Shown: positions 11,278-25,004, numbered from the stretch's first letter. The stretch: 64,000 bases of DNA from an uncultured bacterium (GCA_963777505.1 CAVZQN010000004.1:128001-192000); one strand, 5' to 3'. Program-made: numbers and translations. The notes: generated by a model not told the origin, from the sequence alone.

Positions 11278-11967
11278 ATGGGTACCTCTCGCATACTAGT
11301 TGTTGATGATGAACCTCAGATCACTCGTGTACTGCGCCGAAGTCTTTCTTCTCAAGGATATGAAGTGCAGGTTGCCGAAGATGGCGAAGAAGCTCTTGCC
11401 GTCTTCAAACAATGGAAACCTGAACTTGTTATTACGGATTTATCAATGCCTGGAATGGGCGGACTTGAATTGTGCCGGCGTATTCGAAAAATTTCGAGTA
11501 TTCCAATAATTGTTTTGTCAGTGAAAGGTGAAGAATCAACAAAAGTCGAAGCTCTGGATACAGGAGCGGATGATTACATTACCAAACCGTTCGGTGTCGA
11601 TGAACTCTTTGCACGTATCCGGGTTTCGTTGCGTCATGGAGCCGTGCCTCATGTTGAAGAAGGAACAAAACTGGAAATTGGAGATTTTAAGATAGATCAA
11701 GCCACACGCAACGTAACTGTCCGGAATAAGGAAGTTCATCTAACCCCGAAGGAGTACGAAATCCTTTTGCATTTCTTACGGAATCCAAATCGCATTCTCA
11801 CGCATCGAGCTCTGTTAGGCGCGCTTTGGGGCGGAGAGTTTGTAGATCAAAATGAATATCTTCGTGTGTTTATAGGGCAGCTTCGTAAGAAAATAGAACT
11901 TGATCCTGCAAAACCGCAGTACATTTTGACCGAACCCTGGGTCGGCTACAGATTCAAAGTTGAATAA
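11278..11967 (+). CDS. kdpE: KdpE response regulator (OmpR family)
   Basis: REC (VVDD, ITDLSMP, TKPF) plus wHTH with KdpE-typical EVHLTPKEY, YLRVFIGQLRKKIE and TEPWVGYRF; kdp context. Confidence 0.92.
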   Translation: MGTSRILVVDDEPQITRVLRRSLSSQGYEVQVAEDGEEALAVFKQWKPELVITDLSMPGMGGLELCRRIRKISSIPIIVLSVKGEESTKVEALDTGADDYITKPFGVDELFARIRVSLRHGAVPHVEEGTKLEIGDFKIDQATRNVTVRNKEVHLTPKEYEILLHFLRNPNRILTHRALLGALWGGEFVDQNEYLRVFIGQLRKKIELDPAKPQYILTEPWVGYRFKVE

Positions 11968-13220: not shown

Positions 13221-15890
13221 GTGGAAAGTGAACGTCCGGATCCTGAGCGTTTGTTAAGGCAAATAAAGGCAGAAGAACGAGAGTCGTCTCGTGCAAAGCT
13301 AAAACTGTTTTTCGGACCCTATCCCGGAGTTGGAAAAACATACGCCATGCTTGAAGCAGCTCGGGAAAGAAAAAAGCAAGGCGTTGATGTTGTTGTCGGG
13401 ATTGTTGAAACGCATGGCCGCCCTGAAACAACTGCTTTATTAAAAGACATGGAGATCCTCCCCAGGAAGGAAATTCCTTACAAAGGTGTGGTTTTAAAAG
13501 AATTCGATCTGGATGCAGCTCTCGCACGAAAGCCAGAAATCATTTTGATTGATGAACTCGCCCATTCAAATCCTTCAGAGAGTCGGCATGCGAAGAGATG
13601 GCAGGATGTGGAGGAGCTTCTAAATGAAGGAATTTCCGTTTATACAACATTGAATGTTCAGCATTGGGAAAGTTTGAATGATGTTGTAGCGCAAATTACA
13701 GGGATCAAAGTTCGTGAAACGGTTCCGGATAGTTTTCTTGAGAAAGCTCATGAAGTGGAACTTGTTGATTTGCCTCCTGCGGATTTATTAAAACGTCTGG
13801 CGGAAGGGAAAGTATATATGGGTGATCAGGCGATCCGCGCAGCAGAAAACTTTTTCCAAACAGGAAACTTAATTGCACTGAGAGAACTTGCATTGCGTCA
13901 TACCGCGGAACGTGTGGACGCAGAAATGCAAGAATTTAAGAATCGATATGCAATCACAAAGGTCCTTCCGGTACGAGAAAGGCTTTTAGTAGGGATTACT
14001 GCCTCGCCAAATTCGCGCAGATTAATTAGAGCGACATTGCGGCTGGCTACAAGTTTGCGATGCGAATGGATTACGCTTTACGTTCAAACTGCAGAGCACG
14101 AAAAATTACCTGCGGATCAAAAAGCGCGAATTATCGATACGCTTCGTCTTGCTGAGAGATTGGGTGGAGAAACCGCAGTTCTGACTGGACAAGATGTTTC
14201 TGAAGAGTTGCTCGCGTACGCAAGAGAGCGAAATGTTACAAAGATAGTCTTAGGAAAACCCTCCAGGCCGCGTTGGAAAGAAATTGTTTTTGGATCAACA
14301 GTCAATGAGATTGCGCGGCGTTCAGGCGAAATTGATTTGTATGTGATTAGCGCAGCAAATCTGTCAGATGAAAAAGTCGTTCGCTATAACCGGGCGGAGG
14401 AGCGTCCATCAAATCGTGGAATCGTTGTCGCAATTCTCCTTATTGCGCTTTGTACGGTTTTAGGATGGGCGCTGATTCAATATCTCGACCGCGCAAATCT
14501 AATCATGTCTTATCTGCTTGCCGTTGTATGGCTCTCTTATAAATATGGAAGACGTACGGGAATTGTTGCTTCCGTTTTGAGTGTACTGTGTTTTGATTTC
14601 TTTCTCGTTCCTCCTTACCTGACCTTCCGTGTTACAGACACTGAATACATCATCACTTTTGTTGGGATGCTTGTTGTTTCACTTTTTATCAGCACAATCA
14701 CCGGCCGTCTCGGTTCACTTGTTAAAGCCACCAGAGGGAGAGAAAGAAGGTTAAGAACTTTGTACAAATTAAGCCGGACACTTGCTGAAATTCCTGAACC
14801 GATGGCGATGCTTCAAGCAGCATGGCAACAGCTAAATGATTTTTACAAAATGCCTGTGATTTTGCTAACACCTGACACCACAGGAAAGTTAAGAATTAGC
14901 GCAGGGGATCCGGAGAGATTTGAATTTGCTGGGAATGATGTTCAAGCTGCTGAATGGGTTTTTCGAAATGAAGAAATTGCAGGACGCGGCAGCCAAACAC
15001 TCGCTGGCTCTAAGGGGACCTATATTCCGCTTCGAGGGAGAGAAAAGTCTGTAGGAGTTCTTGGGATCCGCTTAGAGCAAGATTCCGATTTGATTGACCC
15101 CGAACAACTTCGTTTAATGGAAACTTTTGCAGTAGTCATTGGAAGTGCGCTCGAAAGCAAAGAATTATCCGAACAAGCTGGAAAAGCAACAGCATCAATG
15201 GAAGCCGAAAGGTTACGGAATCTTGTGTTGCGATCATTTTCTTTTGATTTAGCCGCACCTTCTCAACAGATTGTGGAGGTAGCGAGCCATTTAAGGAATT
15301 CTCCCGATTTGTCTCAAAATAAAATGCAGGAAGCGATCCAATCTATATGTGAGAATTCGGAACACATTTTTAAGGTTGCATCGAATCTTCCTCATTATCT
15401 GGAAGAGGAAATTCCAGTACTCTCCGATAACATTCTTCCCAGTAACATAGCGCAGGAACTCAATGAAGATGTTCCGCTTTCCATATATCTCAGCACGGAA
15501 AGGATTTTATTTTTCCCTGCTGAAACAACCAGGAAAGAAGTGTTTGAATCGTTGATTCACACCTTAAAGCTTTCGAATGAAAGAGAAGCATTCAAACTAC
15601 TTGCTGAAAGAGAAGAAGCGGGCGGAATTTTGATCAGACCAAATGTTGCAATTCCTCATACAACAATTGATGGTGTTGATGGTGTAAAGGCTTCATTAGG
15701 AATTCAAAAGACAGAAACCGGTACTCCTTTCTTCTGGTTGCTGTTTGTTTCAGGTCCAGATGCAATTCGTCAGCATCTCGAGTTTTTGAAGAGTGCAGCA
15801 CAAACGCTTTCTGACGAAGTTCTGGGAGAATTGTCGAATACAGATAATTCAGGAAAAGTGCTGAGAATATTAGCTGCAAGCGGGGTTTGA
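13221..15890 (+). CDS. kdpD: KdpD sensor (KdpD-Usp-DUF4118-GAF) with a degenerate DHp and a C-terminal PTS EIIA domain in place of HATPase
   Basis: GVGKTYAML, LIDELAH, KRWQDVEELL, LRELALR; Usp; 4 TM; GAF; H-box reads SFSFDLAAP; C-terminus EREEAGG..NVAIPH...HLEFL matches PTS_EIIA_2. Confidence 0.9.
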   Translation: MESERPDPERLLRQIKAEERESSRAKLKLFFGPYPGVGKTYAMLEAARERKKQGVDVVVGIVETHGRPETTALLKDMEILPRKEIPYKGVVLKEFDLDAALARKPEIILIDELAHSNPSESRHAKRWQDVEELLNEGISVYTTLNVQHWESLNDVVAQITGIKVRETVPDSFLEKAHEVELVDLPPADLLKRLAEGKVYMGDQAIRAAENFFQTGNLIALRELALRHTAERVDAEMQEFKNRYAITKVLPVRERLLVGITASPNSRRLIRATLRLATSLRCEWITLYVQTAEHEKLPADQKARIIDTLRLAERLGGETAVLTGQDVSEELLAYARERNVTKIVLGKPSRPRWKEIVFGSTVNEIARRSGEIDLYVISAANLSDEKVVRYNRAEERPSNRGIVVAILLIALCTVLGWALIQYLDRANLIMSYLLAVVWLSYKYGRRTGIVASVLSVLCFDFFLVPPYLTFRVTDTEYIITFVGMLVVSLFISTITGRLGSLVKATRGRERRLRTLYKLSRTLAEIPEPMAMLQAAWQQLNDFYKMPVILLTPDTTGKLRISAGDPERFEFAGNDVQAAEWVFRNEEIAGRGSQTLAGSKGTYIPLRGREKSVGVLGIRLEQDSDLIDPEQLRLMETFAVVIGSALESKELSEQAGKATASMEAERLRNLVLRSFSFDLAAPSQQIVEVASHLRNSPDLSQNKMQEAIQSICENSEHIFKVASNLPHYLEEEIPVLSDNILPSNIAQELNEDVPLSIYLSTERILFFPAETTRKEVFESLIHTLKLSNEREAFKLLAEREEAGGILIRPNVAIPHTTIDGVDGVKASLGIQKTETGTPFFWLLFVSGPDAIRQHLEFLKSAAQTLSDEVLGELSNTDNSGKVLRILAASGV

Positions 15891-15891
15891 C

Positions 15892-16635
15892 ATGCAATTT
15901 AAGAAACTCATGGGTTACATAGCATCGGTGGGAACAATCGCTCTGACGGTTTTACTTTTCAAGCGCATTTTCTCGGATGCTACACCGGCAACCGTCGCTC
16001 TTATACTCGTTGTTGAGGTGTTGTTCGCAGCAACTTTTGGCGGATTCGGTCCTGGACTTTTAGCAGCTGTAATAGCAGCATTGTCATTCAATTTCTTTTT
16101 CCTTCCTCCTTATGGAACTTTCACGATTGCCCATCCTGCAGATGTTGTATCGTTTTTTGTCTTCCTTTCAACTGCAATTGTTGTGAGCAAATTATCCTCT
16201 GCCGTGCGACAACGTGCAGTAGAAGCAGAGCGCAGAAAAGATGAAGTAGAGCATCTTTATCAGTTTGCAAAGGTACTGATTGAAACTCCCGATACTCTTG
16301 AAGGTGCATCATCCATCGCCAGCAAGATCGTTGAAATTTTCCGAGTAAAGTATGCAGGCATCTATGTTCCTGACAAAAGCGGCAAATGGAAACATGTATC
16401 AGTGAGTTCAAATGAGCTTAAGGACATAGCTCTACCTCAGCCGGAAACATTACGAAGCAACACAATCGCCGAGATGATTGATGAATATGGGAAGGGGGTC
16501 CAATACACGGTTATGAACACTCCTTCTCGAAACATTGGCGTGATAGCGTTGCGTGCACCTGATCTGTCCAAGGATACGATCGCAGCCATTGCAAGTCTCG
16601 TTGCTCTTACTGTTGAAAGAAATCGGTTAATCTAG
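15892..16635 (+). CDS. DUF4118 (KdpD TM) plus GAF-like protein with no kinase domain
   Basis: FNFFFLPPYGTFTI, 4 TM, coiled coil EAERRKDEVEHLY, GAF-like region; ends at ALTVERNRLI*; starts 1 bp after the upstream stop. Confidence 0.85.
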   Translation: MQFKKLMGYIASVGTIALTVLLFKRIFSDATPATVALILVVEVLFAATFGGFGPGLLAAVIAALSFNFFFLPPYGTFTIAHPADVVSFFVFLSTAIVVSKLSSAVRQRAVEAERRKDEVEHLYQFAKVLIETPDTLEGASSIASKIVEIFRVKYAGIYVPDKSGKWKHVSVSSNELKDIALPQPETLRSNTIAEMIDEYGKGVQYTVMNTPSRNIGVIALRAPDLSKDTIAAIASLVALTVERNRLI

Positions 16636-16727: not shown

Positions 16728-19104
16728 TTGATTGATCAGACGATTTCGCATTACACCATTCTCAAAAAGCTTGGTGGCGGTGGAATGGGAGTCGTGTATG
16801 AAGCGGAGGATCTTAGCCTCAAACGTCATGTTGCACTCAAATTCCTTCCTGAATCGGTAGCTGAGACTCCGGAGACGCTTGAACGTTTCCGGCGGGAAGC
16901 ACAATCAGCATCTGCGCTTAATCATCCAAATATCTGCACGATATACGAAATTGGTGAACACGATGGTCGTCCTTTCATTGCAATGGAGATGATGAAGGGT
17001 GAGACCTTGAAGCATGCGATTGATGGAAAGCCAATGGAGATTGATACCGTGCTCGATCTGGGGGCACAAATTGCAGATGCGCTCGATGCTGCGCATACGG
17101 AAAGGATTATTCACCGTGACATTAAGCCGGCAAACATATTCGTCACAGAACGTGGCCAGGCAAAGCTGCTGGATTTTGGATTGGCAAAACAGGGAACAGC
17201 AGCGACTGGAGATACTGAAATGCCAACGGCCAGTACTCCGGCACAATTGACGCAAGCTGGTTCTACTCTGGGCACATTTGCGTATATGTCCCCCGAACAA
17301 GCGCGCGGCAAAGTGCTTGATTCGCGTACCGATCTTTTCTCTTATGGAGTTGTGCTCTATGAAATGGTAACCGGCACCCAACCTTTTGTTGGCAGCAGTA
17401 CAGGCGAAGTATTGGAAGCTATTTTTACAAAGGTACCAGTGTCGCCTGTGCGCTTAAATCCGAATATTCCTGTAGAACTAGAACGCATCATATATAAGGC
17501 GCTCGAAAAGGATCCCAATCTGCGATACCGAAGCGCCGCTGATATTCGAACTGATCTTCAACGATTGAAGAGAGACACTCTTTCCAGCGTTCCAGGCAGC
17601 ACTGTTGCAAGAGATACAGCTACAAAAATCCACTCAGCAAAAAAGTCACGGACACTCTGGGTTGGTGTCACAGCTGCAGTGGCAACAATAGTTCTGCTTG
17701 TAGTTTTCTGGCTAGGCCAAAAACCGAAGACCGCAGTGCAAACTACTGGTCCGATTTCGATAGCCGTGCTCCCGTTTGTAAACATGAGTGCGGATAAAAA
17801 TCAGGAATATTTTTCCGATGGCCTTTCAGAACAATTGCTAAACGATCTGGCCAAAACTCGTGGCTTGCGCGTAATCGCAAGAACTTCGTCTTTTCAATTT
17901 AAGGGAAAGAATGAAGACCTTCGTGTGATTGGTAAAAAATTGGATGTTGCAAATATATTGGAAGGAAGTGTACGGAAAGAGGGGAATAAAGTGCGAATTA
18001 CTGCGCAATTAATTCAAACTTCAGATGGATCCCATTTATGGTCTGATACCTATGATCGAGAACTAAATGATGTTTTTGCGGTGCAGGATGATATTGCACG
18101 ATCCGTAGCTGGAGCATTGAAGGTCACGCTTCTAGGACAAACAGCAAGTAGTTCAAAGTCACAAAATGCGGAAGCATATAACCTTTACCTGCAAGGTCGT
18201 TACTTCCAAGATCGAAGCACCATGGAAGACCTTCAGAAGGCGACAAACTCTTTTGAGCAAGCACTTCAACTTGAGCCTGGCTATGCTCTGGCCCACGCAG
18301 GCTTAGCCAGTATTTACTTTAGGCAGGCAGGTTTGGGCCACCTCGCCGCTGTTGAAGGCTTTGAAAAAACGCGGAATGAGGTAGAAAAAGCGCTGAAGAC
18401 CGATCCAAATTTGGCCGAGGCCTACGCAATGCTAGGGCGGGTCCAATTGAATTATGACTGGGATTGGGCCGGTGCCGATGCTTCCTTTCAGAGAGCGTTG
18501 GAACTGGAACCAGGGAACGCGAGAGCAGTTCGGAACGCTGCCGTTCTTGCTGGTACTCTTGGCAGGTTTGAAGAAGCCATTGAACTGAATCTGAAAGCAA
18601 TCGACCTCGATCCTCTAAACATCGGAAGCTATTTGAATCTCGCAAGCTGGTACCACTCTGCCGGCCGGTTGAAGGAGTCAGAGTCCACAACGGCGAAGGC
18701 CTTGAAGCTAAATCCACAATTTCCTGGTGCACACTATCGGATTTTCCTTCTCTACCTGGACACAAATCCGCAAGCGGCACTTGCTGAGATAAAGCGCGAA
18801 ACAGAGCCAATCTGGCGCGACCAAGGTCTCGCTCTGGTTACCTATGCGATGGGGAATAAAAAAGAGGCGGACAAAGTACTTGACAAAGTATATTGAAGAT
18901 TCCCAGACTATCGCGGCTTTTCAGATCGCCCAGATTTATGCCTACCGTCGTGAAACGGATTACACATTCGAATGGCTTGAACGTGCTTATCAACAACATG
19001 ACGGTGGTCTTGCCGAAATGAAAGGCGATCCGTTGCTGCGCAACATCGAAAATGACCCACGATATGCGGCATTCCTGAAAAAAATGAAACTGCCTCTGGA
19101 TTAA
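16728..19104 (+). CDS. Hanks-type Ser/Thr kinase with TM, TolB-like and TPR domains (one apparent +1 frameshift near 18880)
   Basis: [30 protein letters not shown]; SIAVLPF..YFSDGL; TPRs; the C-terminal [19 protein letters not shown] is in the next frame. Confidence 0.9.
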
Positions 19105-19207: not shown

Positions 19208-20300
19208 ATGAATAGACTCCTACTACTCGTCTCGCTTTTACTGAGCTCAATTTGTATAGCACAAACTGAAAATGAGGGTGAGGCTGAAGAACCTCCCGCT
19301 GTAACCTTTAGCGGATTTTTGGAAGCTTATTACTCTTATGACTTCGATAATCCCGATGATCATAAACGGCCATTTTTTCTTTACTCGTATAACAAGCACA
19401 ATGAAGTCAATATCAATCTTGCTTACCTTAAGGCTGCTTACAATTCGGAAAGAGTTCGCGGCAATCTTGCCCTTATGGCTGGTACATATGCAAACGCAAA
19501 CCTTGCTGCAGAATCAGGAGTTTTAAAGAATATTTATGAAGCCAATGGAGGCATCAAGGTTTCTCAAGATCGGGATCTCTGGATCGATGCAGGAATTTTT
19601 GGTTCTCATATTGGTTTCGAAACCGCAATTGGACCAAGCAACTGGACATTAACCCGCAGCATTCTTGCTGAAAATTCTCCATACTACGAGTCCGGCGCAA
19701 AAGTTTCTTACACATACTGATGGGGGAGAGTGGTTTTTTAGCGGATTAATCTTAAACGGCTGGCAACGGATTGAAAGACCAGAAGGGAATAATACTCCAG
19801 CATTTGGAACTCAATTAACCTATAAGCCGAGCGATACATTCTTCTTCAACTACAGCACTTTTATCGGAAATGATAAACCAGATGATGCAAAGCAATGGCG
19901 TAATTTCCATGACTTTTATGCGATAGCTCAGCTCACTCCAAAATTCGGGATCACCGCAGGATTCGATATTGGTTTTGAAGAAGAACCGCCAGGCGGTGAG
20001 GGCTATAACACCTGGTGGACACCGATCGTGATCGTGAGATATTCAGCAACAGACAAAATCAACATTGCTGCAAGAGCGGAATATTACAGCGATGAAGACG
20101 GAGTGATTGTTGCTACAGGAACACCAAATGGATTCAAGACAGCCAGTTACTCAGTCAATGTTGATTACGCATTTACCGATCATATTCTCTGGCGAATTGA
20201 GGGACGAGGATTTCACAGCGAAGATGACATTTTTAACGTGACCGAAGATCCATCCTCATCCAATTTTGCAATGACTACATCGCTGTCTTTGACATTTTGA
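19208..20300 (+). CDS. Outer-membrane beta-barrel porin (BBP2-like), +1 frameshift near 19710
   Basis: Signal peptide; amphipathic beta pattern (FSGFLEAYYSYDF, SHIGFE, AENSPYY, RAEYYSD); C-terminal Phe (SLSLTF). Confidence 0.82.
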
Positions 20301-20303
20301 AGT

Positions 20304-20333
20304 GTACGGGGCGGGTCTTAGACCCGCCCCTAC
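20304..20333. repeat. GTAG-type REP palindrome
   Basis: GGGGCGGGTCT-T-AGACCCGCCCC perfect palindrome followed by TAC. Confidence 0.85.
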
Positions 20334-20348
20334 GAACAGGAGCTTGTT

Positions 20349-20435
20349 ATGTGGGATCTTTTTTTTATCGGATTAACAATCGTTTTTTTCTTACTCAGTC
20401 TCGCTTACGTGCGAGGATGTGAGAAATTGCAGTAG
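20349..20435 (+). CDS. 28-aa single-TM peptide upstream of kdpF (not in the ORF track)
   Basis: MWDLFFIGLTIVFFLLSLAYVRGCEKLQ*; RBS CAGGAG; its stop overlaps the kdpF RBS. Confidence 0.75.
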   Translation: MWDLFFIGLTIVFFLLSLAYVRGCEKLQ

Positions 20436-20445
20436 GAGAAACATT

Positions 20446-20535
20446 ATGGGTCTCGAATCAATTTTAGGGCTGACCGTTTCTGTATTGCTGCTTTTCTATT
20501 TGGTCTACGCGTTGTTGAGTCCCGAGAGGTTCTAA
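20446..20535 (+). CDS. kdpF: K+-transporting ATPase subunit F (not in the ORF track)
   Basis: MGLESILGLTVSVLLLFYLVYALLSPERF* with the hallmark YLxYALLxPExF; RBS AGGAG; 1 bp before kdpA. Confidence 0.92.
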   Translation: MGLESILGLTVSVLLLFYLVYALLSPERF

Positions 20536-20536
20536 G

Positions 20537-22337
20537 ATGACAATCAACGGCTGGCTACAAATTCTTTTTTATTTTCTATTGATTCTGTTGGTGACAAAAC
20601 CAATTGGCGTATTCATGGCACGTGTTTTTAACCGTGAAAAAACATTTCTCGATCCCGTTTTGAGACCAATTGAAAGGTTGATTTATAAATTGACCGGGGT
20701 TGATGAGAATCGTGAAATGCGTTGGACGGAATACGCGGTTGCGATGTTGCTGTTTAGCGTTGTTTCCATGGTTGTTCTTTATTTCATGCAACGGTTGCAG
20801 CATATTCTGCCTTTCAATCCGCAAAACTTAGCTGCGATTAATGAACATTCGTCTTTTAATACAGCAGCATCTTTTACGACAAACACAAACTGGCAGAGTT
20901 ATGTGCCTGAAGTAACGATGAGCTATCTCACACAGATGGCAGGCCTGGCTTATCACAACTTCATTTCTGCGGCTGTTGGAATTGCACTTGCAATCGCTTT
21001 CATACGCGGGATAGCCAGACGGGAAATGAATACGATTGGAAATTTCTGGGTTGATACGGTACGAGCAACTCTGTGGGTGCTGTTGCCGTTTTGCGTTGTT
21101 GGTGCTCTGTTTCTAGTTTCGCAAGGCGTGGTTCAAAATCTGAACCCATACGACACGGTTCAGCTTGTTGGAAAAACAAACGACTGAAGTCGATAAAAAG
21201 GATGAGGCAGGAAATGTCATTACAAATCCGGATGGCACCACTGCTAAGAAATCAACACAAACAATCGCTCAAGGCCCGGTAGCATCTCAAGAATTCATAA
21301 AAGAATGGGGAACGAATGGCGGCGGATTTTTCAATGCAAATAGTTCACATCCATTCGAAAATCCGACACCGTTTTCAAACTTAATTGAAATGTTTGCGAT
21401 TTTTGCGATTTCAGCTGGACTCACTTACACCCTAGGTCAGAATGACCGGCTCACAAAAACATGGATGGGCAGTATTCGCCGCAATGGCATTTCTCTTTTT
21501 TGTAGGCGTCACGGTAGCGTACTGGGCCGAATCGAATGGAAATCCATTGTTAACCGGTACAGATCAAAGCACGAGTGCAACGCAATCCGGCGGCAATATG
21601 GAAGGGAAGGAAATTCGATTTGGACTTGCGAATAGTGCTTTGTTTGCGACCGTAACCACGGATGCGTCCTGCGGCGCAGTAAATTCGATGCACGATTCCT
21701 ACACCCGCATTGGGCGGATTGGTACCGCTTTCAAACATCATGCTCAGTGAAGTGGTCTTTGGCGGAGTCGGCGCAGGAATGTACGGAGTACTCATCTATA
21801 TAGTGCTCTCGGTTTTCATTGCAGGATTAATGGTTGGCAGAACGCCAGAATATTTAGGAAAAAAGATCGAATCCTATGACGTAAAGATGGCAATGCTGAA
21901 TATTCTGATTTTTCCTCTCTTCATACTCGTTCTTACTGGCATTTCTGTAGTTGCATCATTTGGATCTATCCAGTATTTGGAATCCTGGGCCCCATGGGCT
22001 AAGCGAAGTTTTGTATGCCTTCACTTCTGGAACTGGAAATAACGGATCGGCTTTCGCAGGAATTTCAGCGAACACTCCCTGGTATAACACGACGATCGGC
22101 CTAGCGATGCTGTTTGGCCGCTTCTTCATGATTATTCCAGTGCTGGCTTTAGCAGGAAATCTCGCACGGAAGAAAACAGTGCCAGCAAGTCCAGGCACTT
22201 TTCCAGTAACCACGCCTTTATTCACTGTCTTACTTGTAAGTGTGATTTTGATTGTCGGTGCACTGACATTTTTTCCGGTACTAAGCCTTGGACCTATTGT
22301 GGAACATCTGTTGCTGTATGCCGGAAAAACATTTTGA
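20537..22337 (+). CDS. kdpA: K+-transporting ATPase subunit A (four apparent +1 frameshifts)
   Basis: [37 protein letters not shown] and NNGSAFAG filter motifs, spread over five ORF fragments. Confidence 0.93.
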
Positions 22338-22347
22338 GGTTGTATAA

Positions 22348-24393
22348 ATGACAACGAAAGCAAAGAAACAAGCGATTTGGAATACGCAAATTGTAACGCG
22401 TGCTCTGATTGATTCCTTTAAGAAACTAAATCCACGGATCATGATGAAGAATCCTGTCATGTTTGTTGTGGAAGTGGGGAGTGTAATCACAACGATCTTG
22501 TTGATTCGGGACCTCATGGCAGGCACCGGTGGTATCGGGTTCGCACTTCAAATCACGCTCTGGCTCTGGTTCACAGTATTGTTTGCAAATTTTGCTGAAG
22601 CGATGGCTGAAGGCCGCGGAAAAGCGCAGGCTGAAAATCTAAAAAAAGCGCGAACCGAAATCTAACGCACATCGCGCTTTTGCCAAAGGAGAAACTGAAA
22701 CAGTTCCCGCTCCAAAATTACGCAAGGATGATGTTGTTATTGTTTCGGCCGGCGAATTCATTCCAAGTGATGGTGAAATTATTGAAGGTGTCGCTTCAGT
22801 GGATGAATCTGCAATTACAGGTGAATCTGCTCCCGTTATCCGTGAAGCAGGTGGAGACCGCTCTGCAGTTACAGGCGGAACCCGTGTCTTATCAGACCAA
22901 ATCAAAGTCCGAATCACATCGAATCCAGGTGAGACTTTTCTTGATCGAATGATTGGACTGGTTGAAGGAGCGACACGACAAAAGACGCCGAATGAAATCG
23001 CATTAAATATTTTGCTTGCAGGTTTAACCATCATCTTTCTTGTTTGCTGTCGTTACTCTGCAACCTTTTGCGATTTATTCAAAAGCACCACAATCCATTT
23101 TTGTATTGGTTTCACTGCTGGTTTGTCTGATTCCAACAACAATCGGTGGTTTGCTTTCAGCAATCGGTATTGCTGGAATGGATCGTTTAATTCAACACAA
23201 TGTTCTTGCAATGTCTGGACGATCCGTAGAGGCTGCAGGAGATGTAAATACGTTGTTGTTGGATAAAACGGGAACGATCACACTTGGCAACCGTCAGGCA
23301 TCCGAATTTATTCCGCTTCCTGGAGTTGATGAAACCACGCTTGCTGATGCTGCTCAGCTTTCTTCGCTTGCGGACGAAACTCCTGAAGGTCGAAGCATCG
23401 TTGTATTAGCAAAAGAAAAATATAAAATGCGTGGCCGTGAGCTGGCACCGCACGAAGCTCGTTTCATTAAATTCAGCGCACAAACACGGATGTCGGGTGT
23501 TGATTATGATGGCCGGATCATTCGAAAAGGTGCAGCGGATGCAATCGAGAAATTTGTTGTCAGCAATCAGGGTGCTGCTCCAAAAGAGTTGCGTGAAATT
23601 GTAGAACGCATTGCAAAAGCCGGCGGCACACCACTTGTTGTCGCGGAGAATGCAAAAGCACTCGGTGTCATTCACTTAAAAGACATTGTTAAAGGTGGAA
23701 TGAAAGAACGGTTTACTCAACTGCGGGCGATGGGAATTAAAACAATCATGATCACCGGTGATAATCCACTCACTGCCGCTTCTATCGCAGCTGAAGCCGG
23801 TGTCGATGATTTTCTGGCTGAAGCAACACCTGAAGAAAAAATGACGTTGATTAAGAAGGAACAAACTGAAGGCAAACTTGTAGCAATGACTGGTGATGGT
23901 ACGAACGACGCTCCTGCGCTGGCTCAAGCCGACGTTGCTGTCGCAATGAATACAGGGACGCAAGCTGCGAAAGAAGCAGGAAATATGGTGGATCTGGATT
24001 CGAATCCTACGAAGCTAATTGAAATTGTTGAGATCGGGAAACAGCTCTTGATGACGCGCGGAGCTCTGACAACATTTTCAATTTCAAATGATGTCGCAAA
24101 ATACTTTGCGATAATTCCTGCGATGTTTTCTGCTGCCTTTCCGGTTTTGAATGCATTAAACATCATGGGCTTACGCACGCCTCAATCAGCAATTCTTTCT
24201 GCCGTAATTTTCAATGCGCTAATTATCATCGCTTTGATCCCACTCGCTCTTCGCGGTGTAAAATACAGGCCGACTTCCGGCTGCTGCTCTATTAAGGAGG
24301 AATCTGGTGGTTTATGGAGTTGGCGGCATAATCGTTCCATTTATAGGCATCAAAATCATTGATGTTTTCATCAATGCAATCGGACTTGCGTAA
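22348..24393 (+). CDS. kdpB: K+-transporting P-type ATPase subunit B (three apparent +1 frameshifts)
   Basis: [54 protein letters not shown]. Confidence 0.95.
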
Positions 24394-24397
24394 CGAA

Positions 24398-24430
24398 TTT
24401 GCAGCGCCGGCGGGCCGCCGGCGCTACAAA
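24398..24430. repeat. GTAG-type REP-like hairpin between kdpB and kdpC
   Basis: TTTGCAGCGCCGGCGG-G-CCGCCGGCGCTACAAA, 16-bp arms with one mismatch. Confidence 0.7.
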
Positions 24431-24444
24431 CAGGAGAGGTGAAT

Positions 24445-25004
24445 ATGAAAAATCTGAAGATTGCAATTTTAATGACGATTGTAACAACGCTTTTTCTTGG
24501 AATCGATTTATCCACTCGTAGTAACAGGTCTTGCTCAAGTTTTGTTTCCTGACAAAGCGAATGGACAATTAATTAAAAGATAAAAATGGAGCTGTTATCG
24601 GCTCTCGAATCATCGGTCAACCATTTTCATCCTCCAAATATTTTCATTCACGACCTTCGGCCGCGGGCGCAGTCGGCTATGATGCAGGAGCTTCCAGTGG
24701 TTCGAACCTTGGCCCCACAAACCAGAAGCTGATTGACCGCGTAAAAGCTGATGTGGAAAAACGACAGGCGGAAAATCCAGGTACGCCCGTTCCAATTGAT
24801 CTTGTCACTACATCTTCATCAGGACTTGATCCGCACATTTCTCCGGCTGCTGCAGAATTTCAGGTTCCACGAATTGCACGTGAACGTGGTATGAGTGAAG
24901 AGGAACTCCGAAAGCTTGTGGCCAAACATACTGAGGGCAGGCAATTTGGATTTTTAGGAGAACCACGGGTGAATGTACTTTTGTTGAATTTGGATCTTGA
25001 TTAA
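24445..25004 (+). CDS. kdpC: K+-transporting ATPase subunit C (two apparent +1 frameshifts)
   Basis: MKNLKIAIL.., [64 protein letters not shown]. Confidence 0.92.

Follow-up and report, generated by a model that had tools for sequence, protein, structure and literature searches.

What can a potassium-sensing histidine kinase still regulate once its catalytic half has given way to a domain of the phosphotransferase system (PTS)? This question is raised by one gene in a 64,000-nucleotide stretch of DNA from an uncultured bacterium (GCA_963777505.1 CAVZQN010000004.1:128001-192000; hereafter the window), whose open frame starts with GTG and runs uninterrupted over 889 amino acids (aa). An initial annotation had described its product as a KdpD pseudokinase fused to an EIIA-Ntr-like domain. 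Judged from its sequence, the protein is a membrane-bound, non-kinase member of the KdpD family that keeps the whole KdpD sensor body. Sequence and structural model together indicate that a PtsN-like EIIA domain, attached through a flexible tether of ~22 residues, has taken the place of the ATP-binding catalytic (CA) domain of KdpD.

The KdpD N-terminal domain, the Usp domain, the four-helix membrane domain and the GAF domain follow one another in the canonical KdpD order according to both Pfam and Foldseek (Table 1). The N-terminal domain matched the structure 2r8r with an E-value of 2e-20, and within its Walker-A-like motif the homologue alignment revealed G36 and G38 to be invariant and K39 and T40 to be nearly so. 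Neither HisKA (PF00512) nor HATPase_c (PF02518) matched anywhere in the 889-aa protein, even at an E-value of 0.1; the latter result agrees with the observation of the initial annotation that the N, G1, F and G2 boxes are missing. The NCBIfam equivalog for KdpD (NF007793/PRK10490) reached 674.8 bits against a cut-off of 1123, its alignment covering model positions 4-689 of 895 only (residues 2-691 of the query). For the family of KdpD-like non-kinase potassium sensors (NF038185), the score was 390.8 bits (cut-off 550), and the 373 positions of this model aligned end to end with residues 5-377 only. An AlphaFold2 (AF2) model of the entire protein had a mean pLDDT of 67 and a pTM of 0.31, so that the arrangement of the domains relative to each other is unreliable.

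Between the GAF domain and the tether, the model places a helical hairpin (helices 627-692 and 700-730), followed by a disordered segment (731-748, pLDDT <50) and a compact domain; beyond the hairpin it holds the linker and the EIIA fold only. The hairpin corresponds to the DHp domain of KdpD, and the helix leading into it is homologous to that of canonical KdpDs, the motif MEAERLRN being common with proteobacterial members. Within the hairpin, F675 (15243-15245) occupies the column of the phospho-His and A679 that of the Thr in the H-D-x-x-T motif. To compare these columns, we included 22 canonical KdpDs in a MAFFT alignment; 13 of them belong to the same phylum and nine to other phyla. One of the same-phylum rows (L028) stems from an unpublished genome (G152), and the counts are independent of it. 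The first column holds His in all 22 canonical KdpDs and Phe or Tyr in all 14 hairpin-bearing fusions (hereafter the long form), and the second, four residues on, holds Thr in 22/22 and Ala, Gly, Gln or Glu in 14/14, respectively. A further alignment of the window protein with 30 homologues likewise has Phe or Tyr in the His column in 31 of 31 sequences, which bears out the proposed position of Phe675. The corresponding residue of E. coli KdpD, which we take to be His673, is consistent with the register of the NCBIfam alignment given above. In HisKA kinases, the Thr of the H box is required for phosphatase activity. Since the modeled hairpin persists while both columns are substituted, the DHp is best described, on the strength of alignment and model, as a domain kept structurally with its catalysis lost. 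The linker that follows varies among homologues in both length and sequence. A search of the ESM Atlas with residues 641-889 yielded no usable match, all clusters being of the HisKA type and below 0.9.

The C-terminal domain is PtsN-like by sequence and, as far as the model indicates, by fold. It matched PTS_EIIA_2 (PF00359) over residues 760-885 with 33.2 bits against a cut-off of 27 (E 6e-8, hmmscan; 37.3 bits in the genome search), and its top sequence matches in the PDB were the PtsN chains 3urr and 4gqx (E ~1e-3), in which VAIPH aligns with the active-site motif and HLEFL with the second conserved His. The best structure matches were IIA-Ntr/PtsN entries as well (3urr, 2a0j, 4gqx, and 1a6j; TM 0.67-0.73, E 1e-7 to 1e-5), and the block-mean pLDDT of residues 751-880 ranged from 71 to 90, mostly 83-90. 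At a mean column identity of 74% in the homologue alignment, H813, H852, R797, E798, G801 and G802 are invariant in 31/31 sequences, and H813, R797 and E798 remain so across 16 sequences that include 12 DHp-less relatives. This conservation of active-site residues suggests a functional EIIA domain, with H813 as the probable site of phosphorylation. The features on which the initial annotation had relied were recovered throughout: ERLRNLVLRSFSFDLAAP, EREEAGG..VAIPH and HLEFL all lie in the one uninterrupted frame, the codons of F675 and H813 (15657-15659) were correctly placed, counted from 13221, the C-terminus does match PF00359 and the PtsN fold, and H813 is conserved.

Table 1. Features of the fusion gene, of its neighborhood in the window, and of two related genes in other genomes (L147 and L148, numbered within their own loci).
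Feature	Position	Strand	Basis
Whole gene, predicted kinase-dead KdpD-family sensor with PtsN-like EIIA domain	13221..15890	+	ORF, Pfam architecture
KdpD N-terminal sensor domain, aa 24-232, Walker-A-like GPYPGVGKT	13290..13916	+	PF02702, 318 bits
Usp domain, aa 253-368	13977..14324	+	PF00582, 43.5 bits; Foldseek 7ji4 (KdpD USP domain)
DUF4118 four-helix membrane domain, aa 402-498	14424..14714	+	PF13493, 103.5 bits; model helices 399-523
GAF domain, aa 530-645	14808..15155	+	PF13492 (GAF_3), 43 bits; Foldseek 4qpr (E. coli KdpD GAF), TM 0.82
Putative vestigial DHp, helical hairpin aa 627-692 and 700-730	15099..15410	+	AF2 secondary structure; column counts
Predicted flexible linker, aa 731-752	15411..15476	+	pLDDT <50 for 731-748; indels, low conservation
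PtsN-like EIIA domain, aa 753-886	15477..15878	+	PF00359; PtsN alignment; Foldseek
Candidate phospho-His H813; second His H852; R797/E798	H813 15657-15659; H852 15774-15776	+	alignment
OmpR-type response regulator, KdpE-like	11278..11967	+	Pfam Response_reg and Trans_reg_C
Minimal kinase DUF4118-HisKA-HATPase_c, 368 aa	12031..13137	+	Pfam; H box THDLRTP, N, G1, F and G2 boxes intact
KdpD-like membrane stub, 247 aa, DUF4118 and GAF-region remnant	15892..16635	+	Pfam DUF4118
kdpA, kdpB, kdpC, presumed regulated operon, eight frame changes	20537..24965	+	Pfam KdpA on split ORFs; tblastn with G041 orthologues
BBP2 porin and kdpABC, stretch affected by frame changes	19208-24965		
Soluble fusion, genome G304	L147 1558-3303	-	KdpD-N(-Usp)-EIIA_2
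Soluble fusion, genome G092	L148 937-2562	+	KdpD-N(-Usp)-EIIA_2

The fusion is not restricted to the window. A search with residues 650-889 against 5.8 billion clustered proteins yielded 33 matches, 32 of them with the EIIA domain, and all five Pfam families were found in 30 of these 32; P0021 is a 581-aa partial sequence without the N-terminal domains, and P0024 has no GAF_3 call. The homologues are 43-68% identical in the C-terminal part (98% in the window's own cluster), and some derive from metagenome-assembled genomes of Acidobacteriota. Their source names are “DUF4118 domain-containing protein” and “sensor histidine kinase KdpD”, the second of which is misleading with respect to catalysis because phospho-His, Thr and HATPase_c are all absent. 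Among 401 sampled genomes of the phylum, 23 had a match at E <= 1e-5. Four of these matches cover the whole C-terminal part and belong to the window genome and to three relatives (G041, G108, and G155), all of the window's own family, to which the long form is confined within this sample. A further 18 are ordinary KdpDs of ~895-1165 aa that match in the helix/DHp stretch only, and one is a free EIIA. Among seven genomes of this family, the KdpD N-terminal domain scored above its cut-off in four only, in each case within a fusion, and none of the seven yielded a canonical KdpD, the three without the fusion being fragmented into 410-940 contigs.

When 1.84 billion representatives were searched with a profile, there were 679 matches at E <= 1e-3 and just 11, all fragments, at E <= 1e-30, which indicates that the fusion family is small. 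Scanning genome contigs with patterns from the helix before the DHp left 80 loci, comprising 77 ordinary KdpDs and the three known relatives. The corresponding scan of metagenome contigs gave only four short loci, each holding the fusion gene; no other gene of the window locus was matched in them at E < 1e-8, except for a paralogous match of the membrane stub (Table 1) inside the fusion gene itself. Equal contig sizes had suggested that fusion and minimal kinase share contigs; these cases were not counted, and L120 (5246 bases) lacks the kinase.

A divergent match (P0170) led to a sister subfamily of 12 proteins (P0304-P0315, 794-829 aa), in which KdpD, Usp, DUF4118 and EIIA_2 are present in 12/12 and GAF_3 in 11/12. 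These proteins lack the DHp hairpin of ~77 residues, and two of the 12 also lack the second His of the EIIA domain. With the C-terminus of P0310 as query, this DHp-less form was not found in the 401-genome sample. We calculated a tree from the sensor body (columns for residues 250-650, with DHp and EIIA excluded) on 48 rows, after two short and five near-duplicate rows had been dropped. The 14 long and 12 DHp-less fusions grouped in a single clade (SH-aLRT support 100%) that excluded the 22 canonical KdpDs, and the two forms occupied one side of a branch each (support 100 and 94). The simplest reading of this tree would be a single origin of the fusion, with the dead DHp being lost later in one branch.

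Where, then, does the catalytic activity reside? In the window, the gene order is KdpE-like response regulator, minimal kinase, fusion, stub, Ser/Thr kinase, BBP2 porin, kdpA, kdpB, and kdpC. The response regulator has KdpE as its best NCBIfam match (214 bits, below the equivalog cut-off of 325), and the minimal kinase is found in six out of seven genomes of the family. The relatives show the same components in other orders. In G108 and G155, minimal kinase, response regulator (73-74% identical to the window copy), stub, kdpA, kdpB, one open reading frame (ORF) and the fusion follow one another; that ORF was not searched in these two genomes, and its counterpart in G041 matches the window's kdpC. 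G041 has porin, stub, kdpA, kdpB, kdpC, and fusion in succession; its minimal kinase lies further upstream and ends ~10.5 kb before the fusion gene, ~2.2 kb outside the locus examined, and no response regulator was seen within that locus. The window and all three relatives have sensor half and kinase half as separate genes linked to the kdp genes, in the window, G108 and G155 together with a response regulator. With the fusion gene at the usual place of kdpD and the catalytic half encoded by a separate gene, we consider this a split KdpD arrangement. The initial annotation had proposed that the phosphorylatable His had moved from an ATP-dependent to a PEP-dependent site (PEP, phosphoenolpyruvate). 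This claim cannot be upheld, the ATP-dependent His being kept in trans on the minimal kinase, and because this adjacent kinase retains it, the 889-aa protein is better read as the kinase-dead co-sensor of a split KdpD. The stub, which starts 1 nt past the stop of the fusion gene, matches positions 398-617 of the NCBIfam KdpD model and lies directly upstream of kdpA in 3/3 relatives, may belong to the sensor complex as its third component.

A further question concerns the phosphate donor of the EIIA domain. The window genome encodes a regulatory PTS on another contig (L119; contig 6, 156000-169000) in the order lptB-rpoN-hpf-ptsN-hprK-rapZ-EIIAMan-HPr-EI, which confirms the expectation that EI and HPr would be present and adds HprK and a free PtsN. 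The HPr carries both His15 and Ser46, and the EI has no N-terminal GAF domain, which marks it as PtsI and not PtsP. The true PtsN of this genome is a separate 161-aa gene next to rpoN, hpf and hprK, whereas the fused domain differs from PtsN proper, a free protein of ~150-160 aa from the rpoN cluster. The EIIC families PF02378 and PF03609 were not found in the assembly (95.9% complete), and as neither of the two families searched is represented, the PTS looks regulatory. HPr was present in every fusion-carrying genome checked, and the three relatives possess a free EIIA_2 as well.

Precedents exist for both halves of this arrangement, here taken from the available portions of the respective sources. 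Unphosphorylated free PtsN binds KdpD and stimulates the kinase in E. coli and rhizobia (PMC13104625; 10.1101/2023.07.05.547876), the latter carrying a second ptsN within the kdpDE cluster (PMC13104625; bioRxiv 10.1101/2023.07.05.547876), and in P. putida the phosphorylated PtsN is the active form (PMC13104625). Free PtsN also binds TrkA and the YcgO antiporter, and how and why it acts on these three targets is still debated according to the same 2026 review (PMC13104625). Split systems consisting of a KdpD-N, a sensor kinase and a response regulator are described for Deinococcus radiodurans and cyanobacteria, with KdpD-N corresponding to the N-terminal half of E. coli KdpD (PMC5716572).

Based on these data, we regard it as probable, though far from certain, that the window protein is a non-kinase K+ co-sensor whose tethered PtsN modulates a separate kinase. 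The catalytic half of KdpD would be supplied in trans by the minimal kinase, consisting of membrane domain, DHp and CA, together with the KdpE-like response regulator, and with the catalytic half thus provided the system would be a split KdpD of the Deinococcus/cyanobacterial type. The sensor body would read the K+ status, and the tethered EIIA would register the state of the regulatory PTS by accepting phosphate on H813 from HPr~P, itself charged by EI from PEP. The state of H813 would then decide whether the EIIA binds to the minimal kinase at its transmitter domain or lets go of it, and the resulting phosphorylation of the KdpE-like regulator would set kdpFABC transcription. The PtsN-KdpD interaction that operates in trans elsewhere would in this way have become intramolecular to the sensor complex.

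Several observations weigh against this co-sensor reading. We infer the phosphorylation of H813, the contact with the minimal kinase and the sign of the effect alike. The EIIA domain failed the PtsN equivalog (TIGR01419, 17.6 bits against a cut-off of 138.7), scored 33 bits with PF00359 compared with 97.7 for the genome's own PtsN, and shares 27% identity over 93 residues with the latter; being that divergent from PtsN, it may have changed partners. BLASTP gave no alignment between the vestigial DHp (aa 641-745) and the minimal kinase, and the dead hairpin is not essential to a common mechanism, as the sister subfamily has deleted it. Short DUF4118 kinases of this kind are far commoner than the fusion (5905 matches at E <= 1e-60 compared with 32 + 12 fusions), which shows that the kinase does not need the fusion partner. 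Finally, the system may be decaying or redirected in the window genome itself, given nine frame changes in its kdpABC and porin genes (see below). A complex prediction of two copies of the minimal-kinase transmitter (aa 112-368) with the EIIA domain (aa 745-889), made without controls, gave a score of 0.00 and a mark of 0.32 and is evidence neither way.

The wide range of the minimal kinase would also fit an alternative in which the EIIA were an output arm acting on a target other than this kinase, such as the KdpFABC pump, another K+ transporter or the response regulator, making the protein a post-translational regulator that senses K+ and the PTS. The binding of free PtsN to TrkA and YcgO besides KdpD (PMC13104625, available portion) fits this alternative, as does the direct fusion of EIIA_2 to cation/proton antiporters in seven of ten proteins scanned, and in the relatives the fusion gene closely follows kdpB and the ORF in kdpC position. 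We nevertheless consider it unlikely: the minimal kinase and a KdpE-like regulator are encoded near kdp in the window, G108 and G155, the kinase lies ~10.5 kb upstream of the fusion in G041, and no canonical KdpD was found in the genomes of the family that might sense K+ on behalf of the minimal kinase instead.

Less probable still is a degenerate EIIA, serving without phosphorylation as a structural or dimerization module in what would be the plain sensor half of a split KdpD, free of any PTS input. The low Pfam score, the failed PtsN equivalog and the loss of the second His in two of 12 DHp-less relatives would suit such a module, but it would be difficult to reconcile with H813, R797 and E798 being invariant in 31 long and 12 DHp-less forms despite a domain identity of 43-68%, or with the constant company of HPr in fusion-bearing genomes. 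The invariant His and the presence of EI and HPr could, on the other hand, also suggest the strict form of the initial annotation's proposal, in which the protein itself relays phosphate from PEP via EI, HPr and H813 onward, replacing ATP-dependent signaling to the regulator. This we regard as very improbable, as an intact ATP-dependent kinase and its response regulator are encoded alongside the fusion and co-occur with it, and an EIIA-Ntr His is not known to pass its phosphate to a receiver Asp. The nine frame changes nearby and the frame breaks in conserved genes of the relatives' assemblies might speak for a chimeric assembly or a pseudogene in decay, but either is hardly credible for a frame open over 889 codons with invariant active-site residues, the high column identity given above, and the same join in 32 independently assembled proteins and three other genomes.

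Returning to the co-sensor reading, a more elaborate version can be put forward only tentatively. Here, a three-protein membrane K+ sensor would be formed by the kinase-dead KdpD scaffold with its tethered PtsN, the minimal DUF4118 kinase and the KdpD-like stub. Phosphorylation of H813 by HPr would decide whether the EIIA docks on the kinase transmitter or parks on the vestigial DHp, so that K+ and PEP/PTS status would be joined as in a logic gate. The long form would then be a surviving intermediate between canonical KdpD and the DHp-less fusions, and possibly also the first example in nature of a two-component sensor with a built-in PTS domain.

How does the fusion compare with known systems? 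With the trans PtsN-KdpD pairs of E. coli, Rhizobium leguminosarum, Sinorhizobium fredii and Pseudomonas putida, including the rhizobial ptsN2, it shares, according to the available portions of the sources, the types of partners, i.e., a PtsN-type EIIA with phospho-His motif and a KdpD-family sensor for kdpFABC, as well as a regulatory PTS with EI and HPr/NPr. It differs in that the EIIA lies within the sensor polypeptide, the kinase is a separate protein and the EIIA in the fusion is only distantly paralogous to the rpoN-linked PtsN of its genome. The split KdpDs of Deinococcus and cyanobacteria, as far as the source portion available describes them, likewise have separate genes for sensor and catalysis, with the sensor half ending the kdp structural genes and kinase and response regulator forming an adjacent unit, whereas the window protein keeps membrane domain, GAF and dead DHp and adds the EIIA. 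The NF038185 type, ~373 aa long and built of KdpD-N and Usp alone, also senses as a KdpD relative without kinase activity, and its model aligns with the N-terminal 377 residues; in contrast to it, the window protein has 889 aa and four further domains and stays below the cut-off. Canonical KdpD (PRK10490, also the JGI name of the homologues) has the same domain order but retains the phospho-His, the Thr and the HATPase_c domain. Histidine pseudokinases that regulate a true kinase are exemplified by RetS acting on GacS. The window protein is comparable to this type in being a kinase-family protein without catalytic output that is proposed to modulate a true kinase, yet no DHp-DHp pairing is indicated here, the proposed effector being the EIIA domain. 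The fusion is a combination of split KdpD with PtsN control of KdpD, conserved and small in range.

The initial annotation had regarded this protein as the best candidate for an undescribed system. In the accessible portion of the full-text literature, whose coverage does not extend to subscription journals and InterPro, no description of a KdpD-EIIA fusion was found, and the text portion available of the 2026 PTS-Ntr review (PMC13104625) does not contain “fused”, “fusion” or “Acidobacteria”. To that extent the claim stands; a singular case it is not, given the clade with its DHp-less form and soluble fusions elsewhere in the phylum. The latter are KdpD-N(-Usp)-EIIA_2 proteins in two other families (G304, 582 aa; G092, 542 aa), which resemble the window protein in joining a KdpD sensor to PTS_EIIA_2 but have no membrane domain, GAF domain or DHp remnant. 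In a weakly supported tree of EIIA domains, to be taken as a hint only, their EIIA groups with the rpoN-type PtsN and not with the window's clade, for which reason the soluble fusion may have arisen separately.

As a natural fusion, the protein provides independent evidence of the Rosetta-stone type that the partnership of PtsN and KdpD is ancient and reaches well beyond the Proteobacteria. For experiments it is the simpler object, since a 1:1 tethered pair, a kinase-dead scaffold and a separate minimal kinase would allow the effect of EIIA phosphorylation on the kinase to be measured without competition from other PtsN targets. Together, dead DHp with EIIA, no DHp with EIIA, and soluble KdpD-N with EIIA represent three grades of KdpD reduction that document the dismantling and rewiring of a histidine kinase.

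The antiporters encountered in the profile search deserve mention in their own right. The seven proteins concerned (P0196, P0228, P0243, P0292, P0288, P0194, and P0224) are cation/proton antiporters with a Na_H_Exchanger domain, one of them also with TrkA_N; all carry one or two EIIA_2 domains in the same chain, and they mirror the known trans control of the YcgO antiporter by free PtsN.

In the window, the regulator block is separated from the porin and kdp genes by the gene of a Ser/Thr protein kinase of 722 aa (16728-18896; named from reading its sequence), which is extended far beyond the kinase part at its C-terminus. It had no tblastn match in the kdp loci of the three relatives, from which we conclude that the gene order of the window is rearranged relative to theirs.

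Downstream of this gene, nine frame changes were counted within ~5.8 kb in comparison with the intact orthologues of G041, one in the porin, four in kdpA, three in kdpB and one in kdpC; the only kdpA of the genome lies in five frame segments. A run of five A occurred in three of the nine junction windows, and no longer homopolymer in any of them. The regulator block (7.6 kb) and the scanned ORFs of the 13-kb PTS locus are long and unbroken, as judged without orthologue comparison. Either the pump operon is decaying here or the stretch is locally misassembled. Single frame breaks were also observed in the relatives, namely in the fusion gene of G108 (L037 7516-10184, near aa 133-138), in kdpB of G155 (L038 5663-6923) and, near the G1 box, in the minimal kinase of G041 (L135 1450-2460). 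As these hit conserved genes, indel errors in the relatives' assemblies are plausible.

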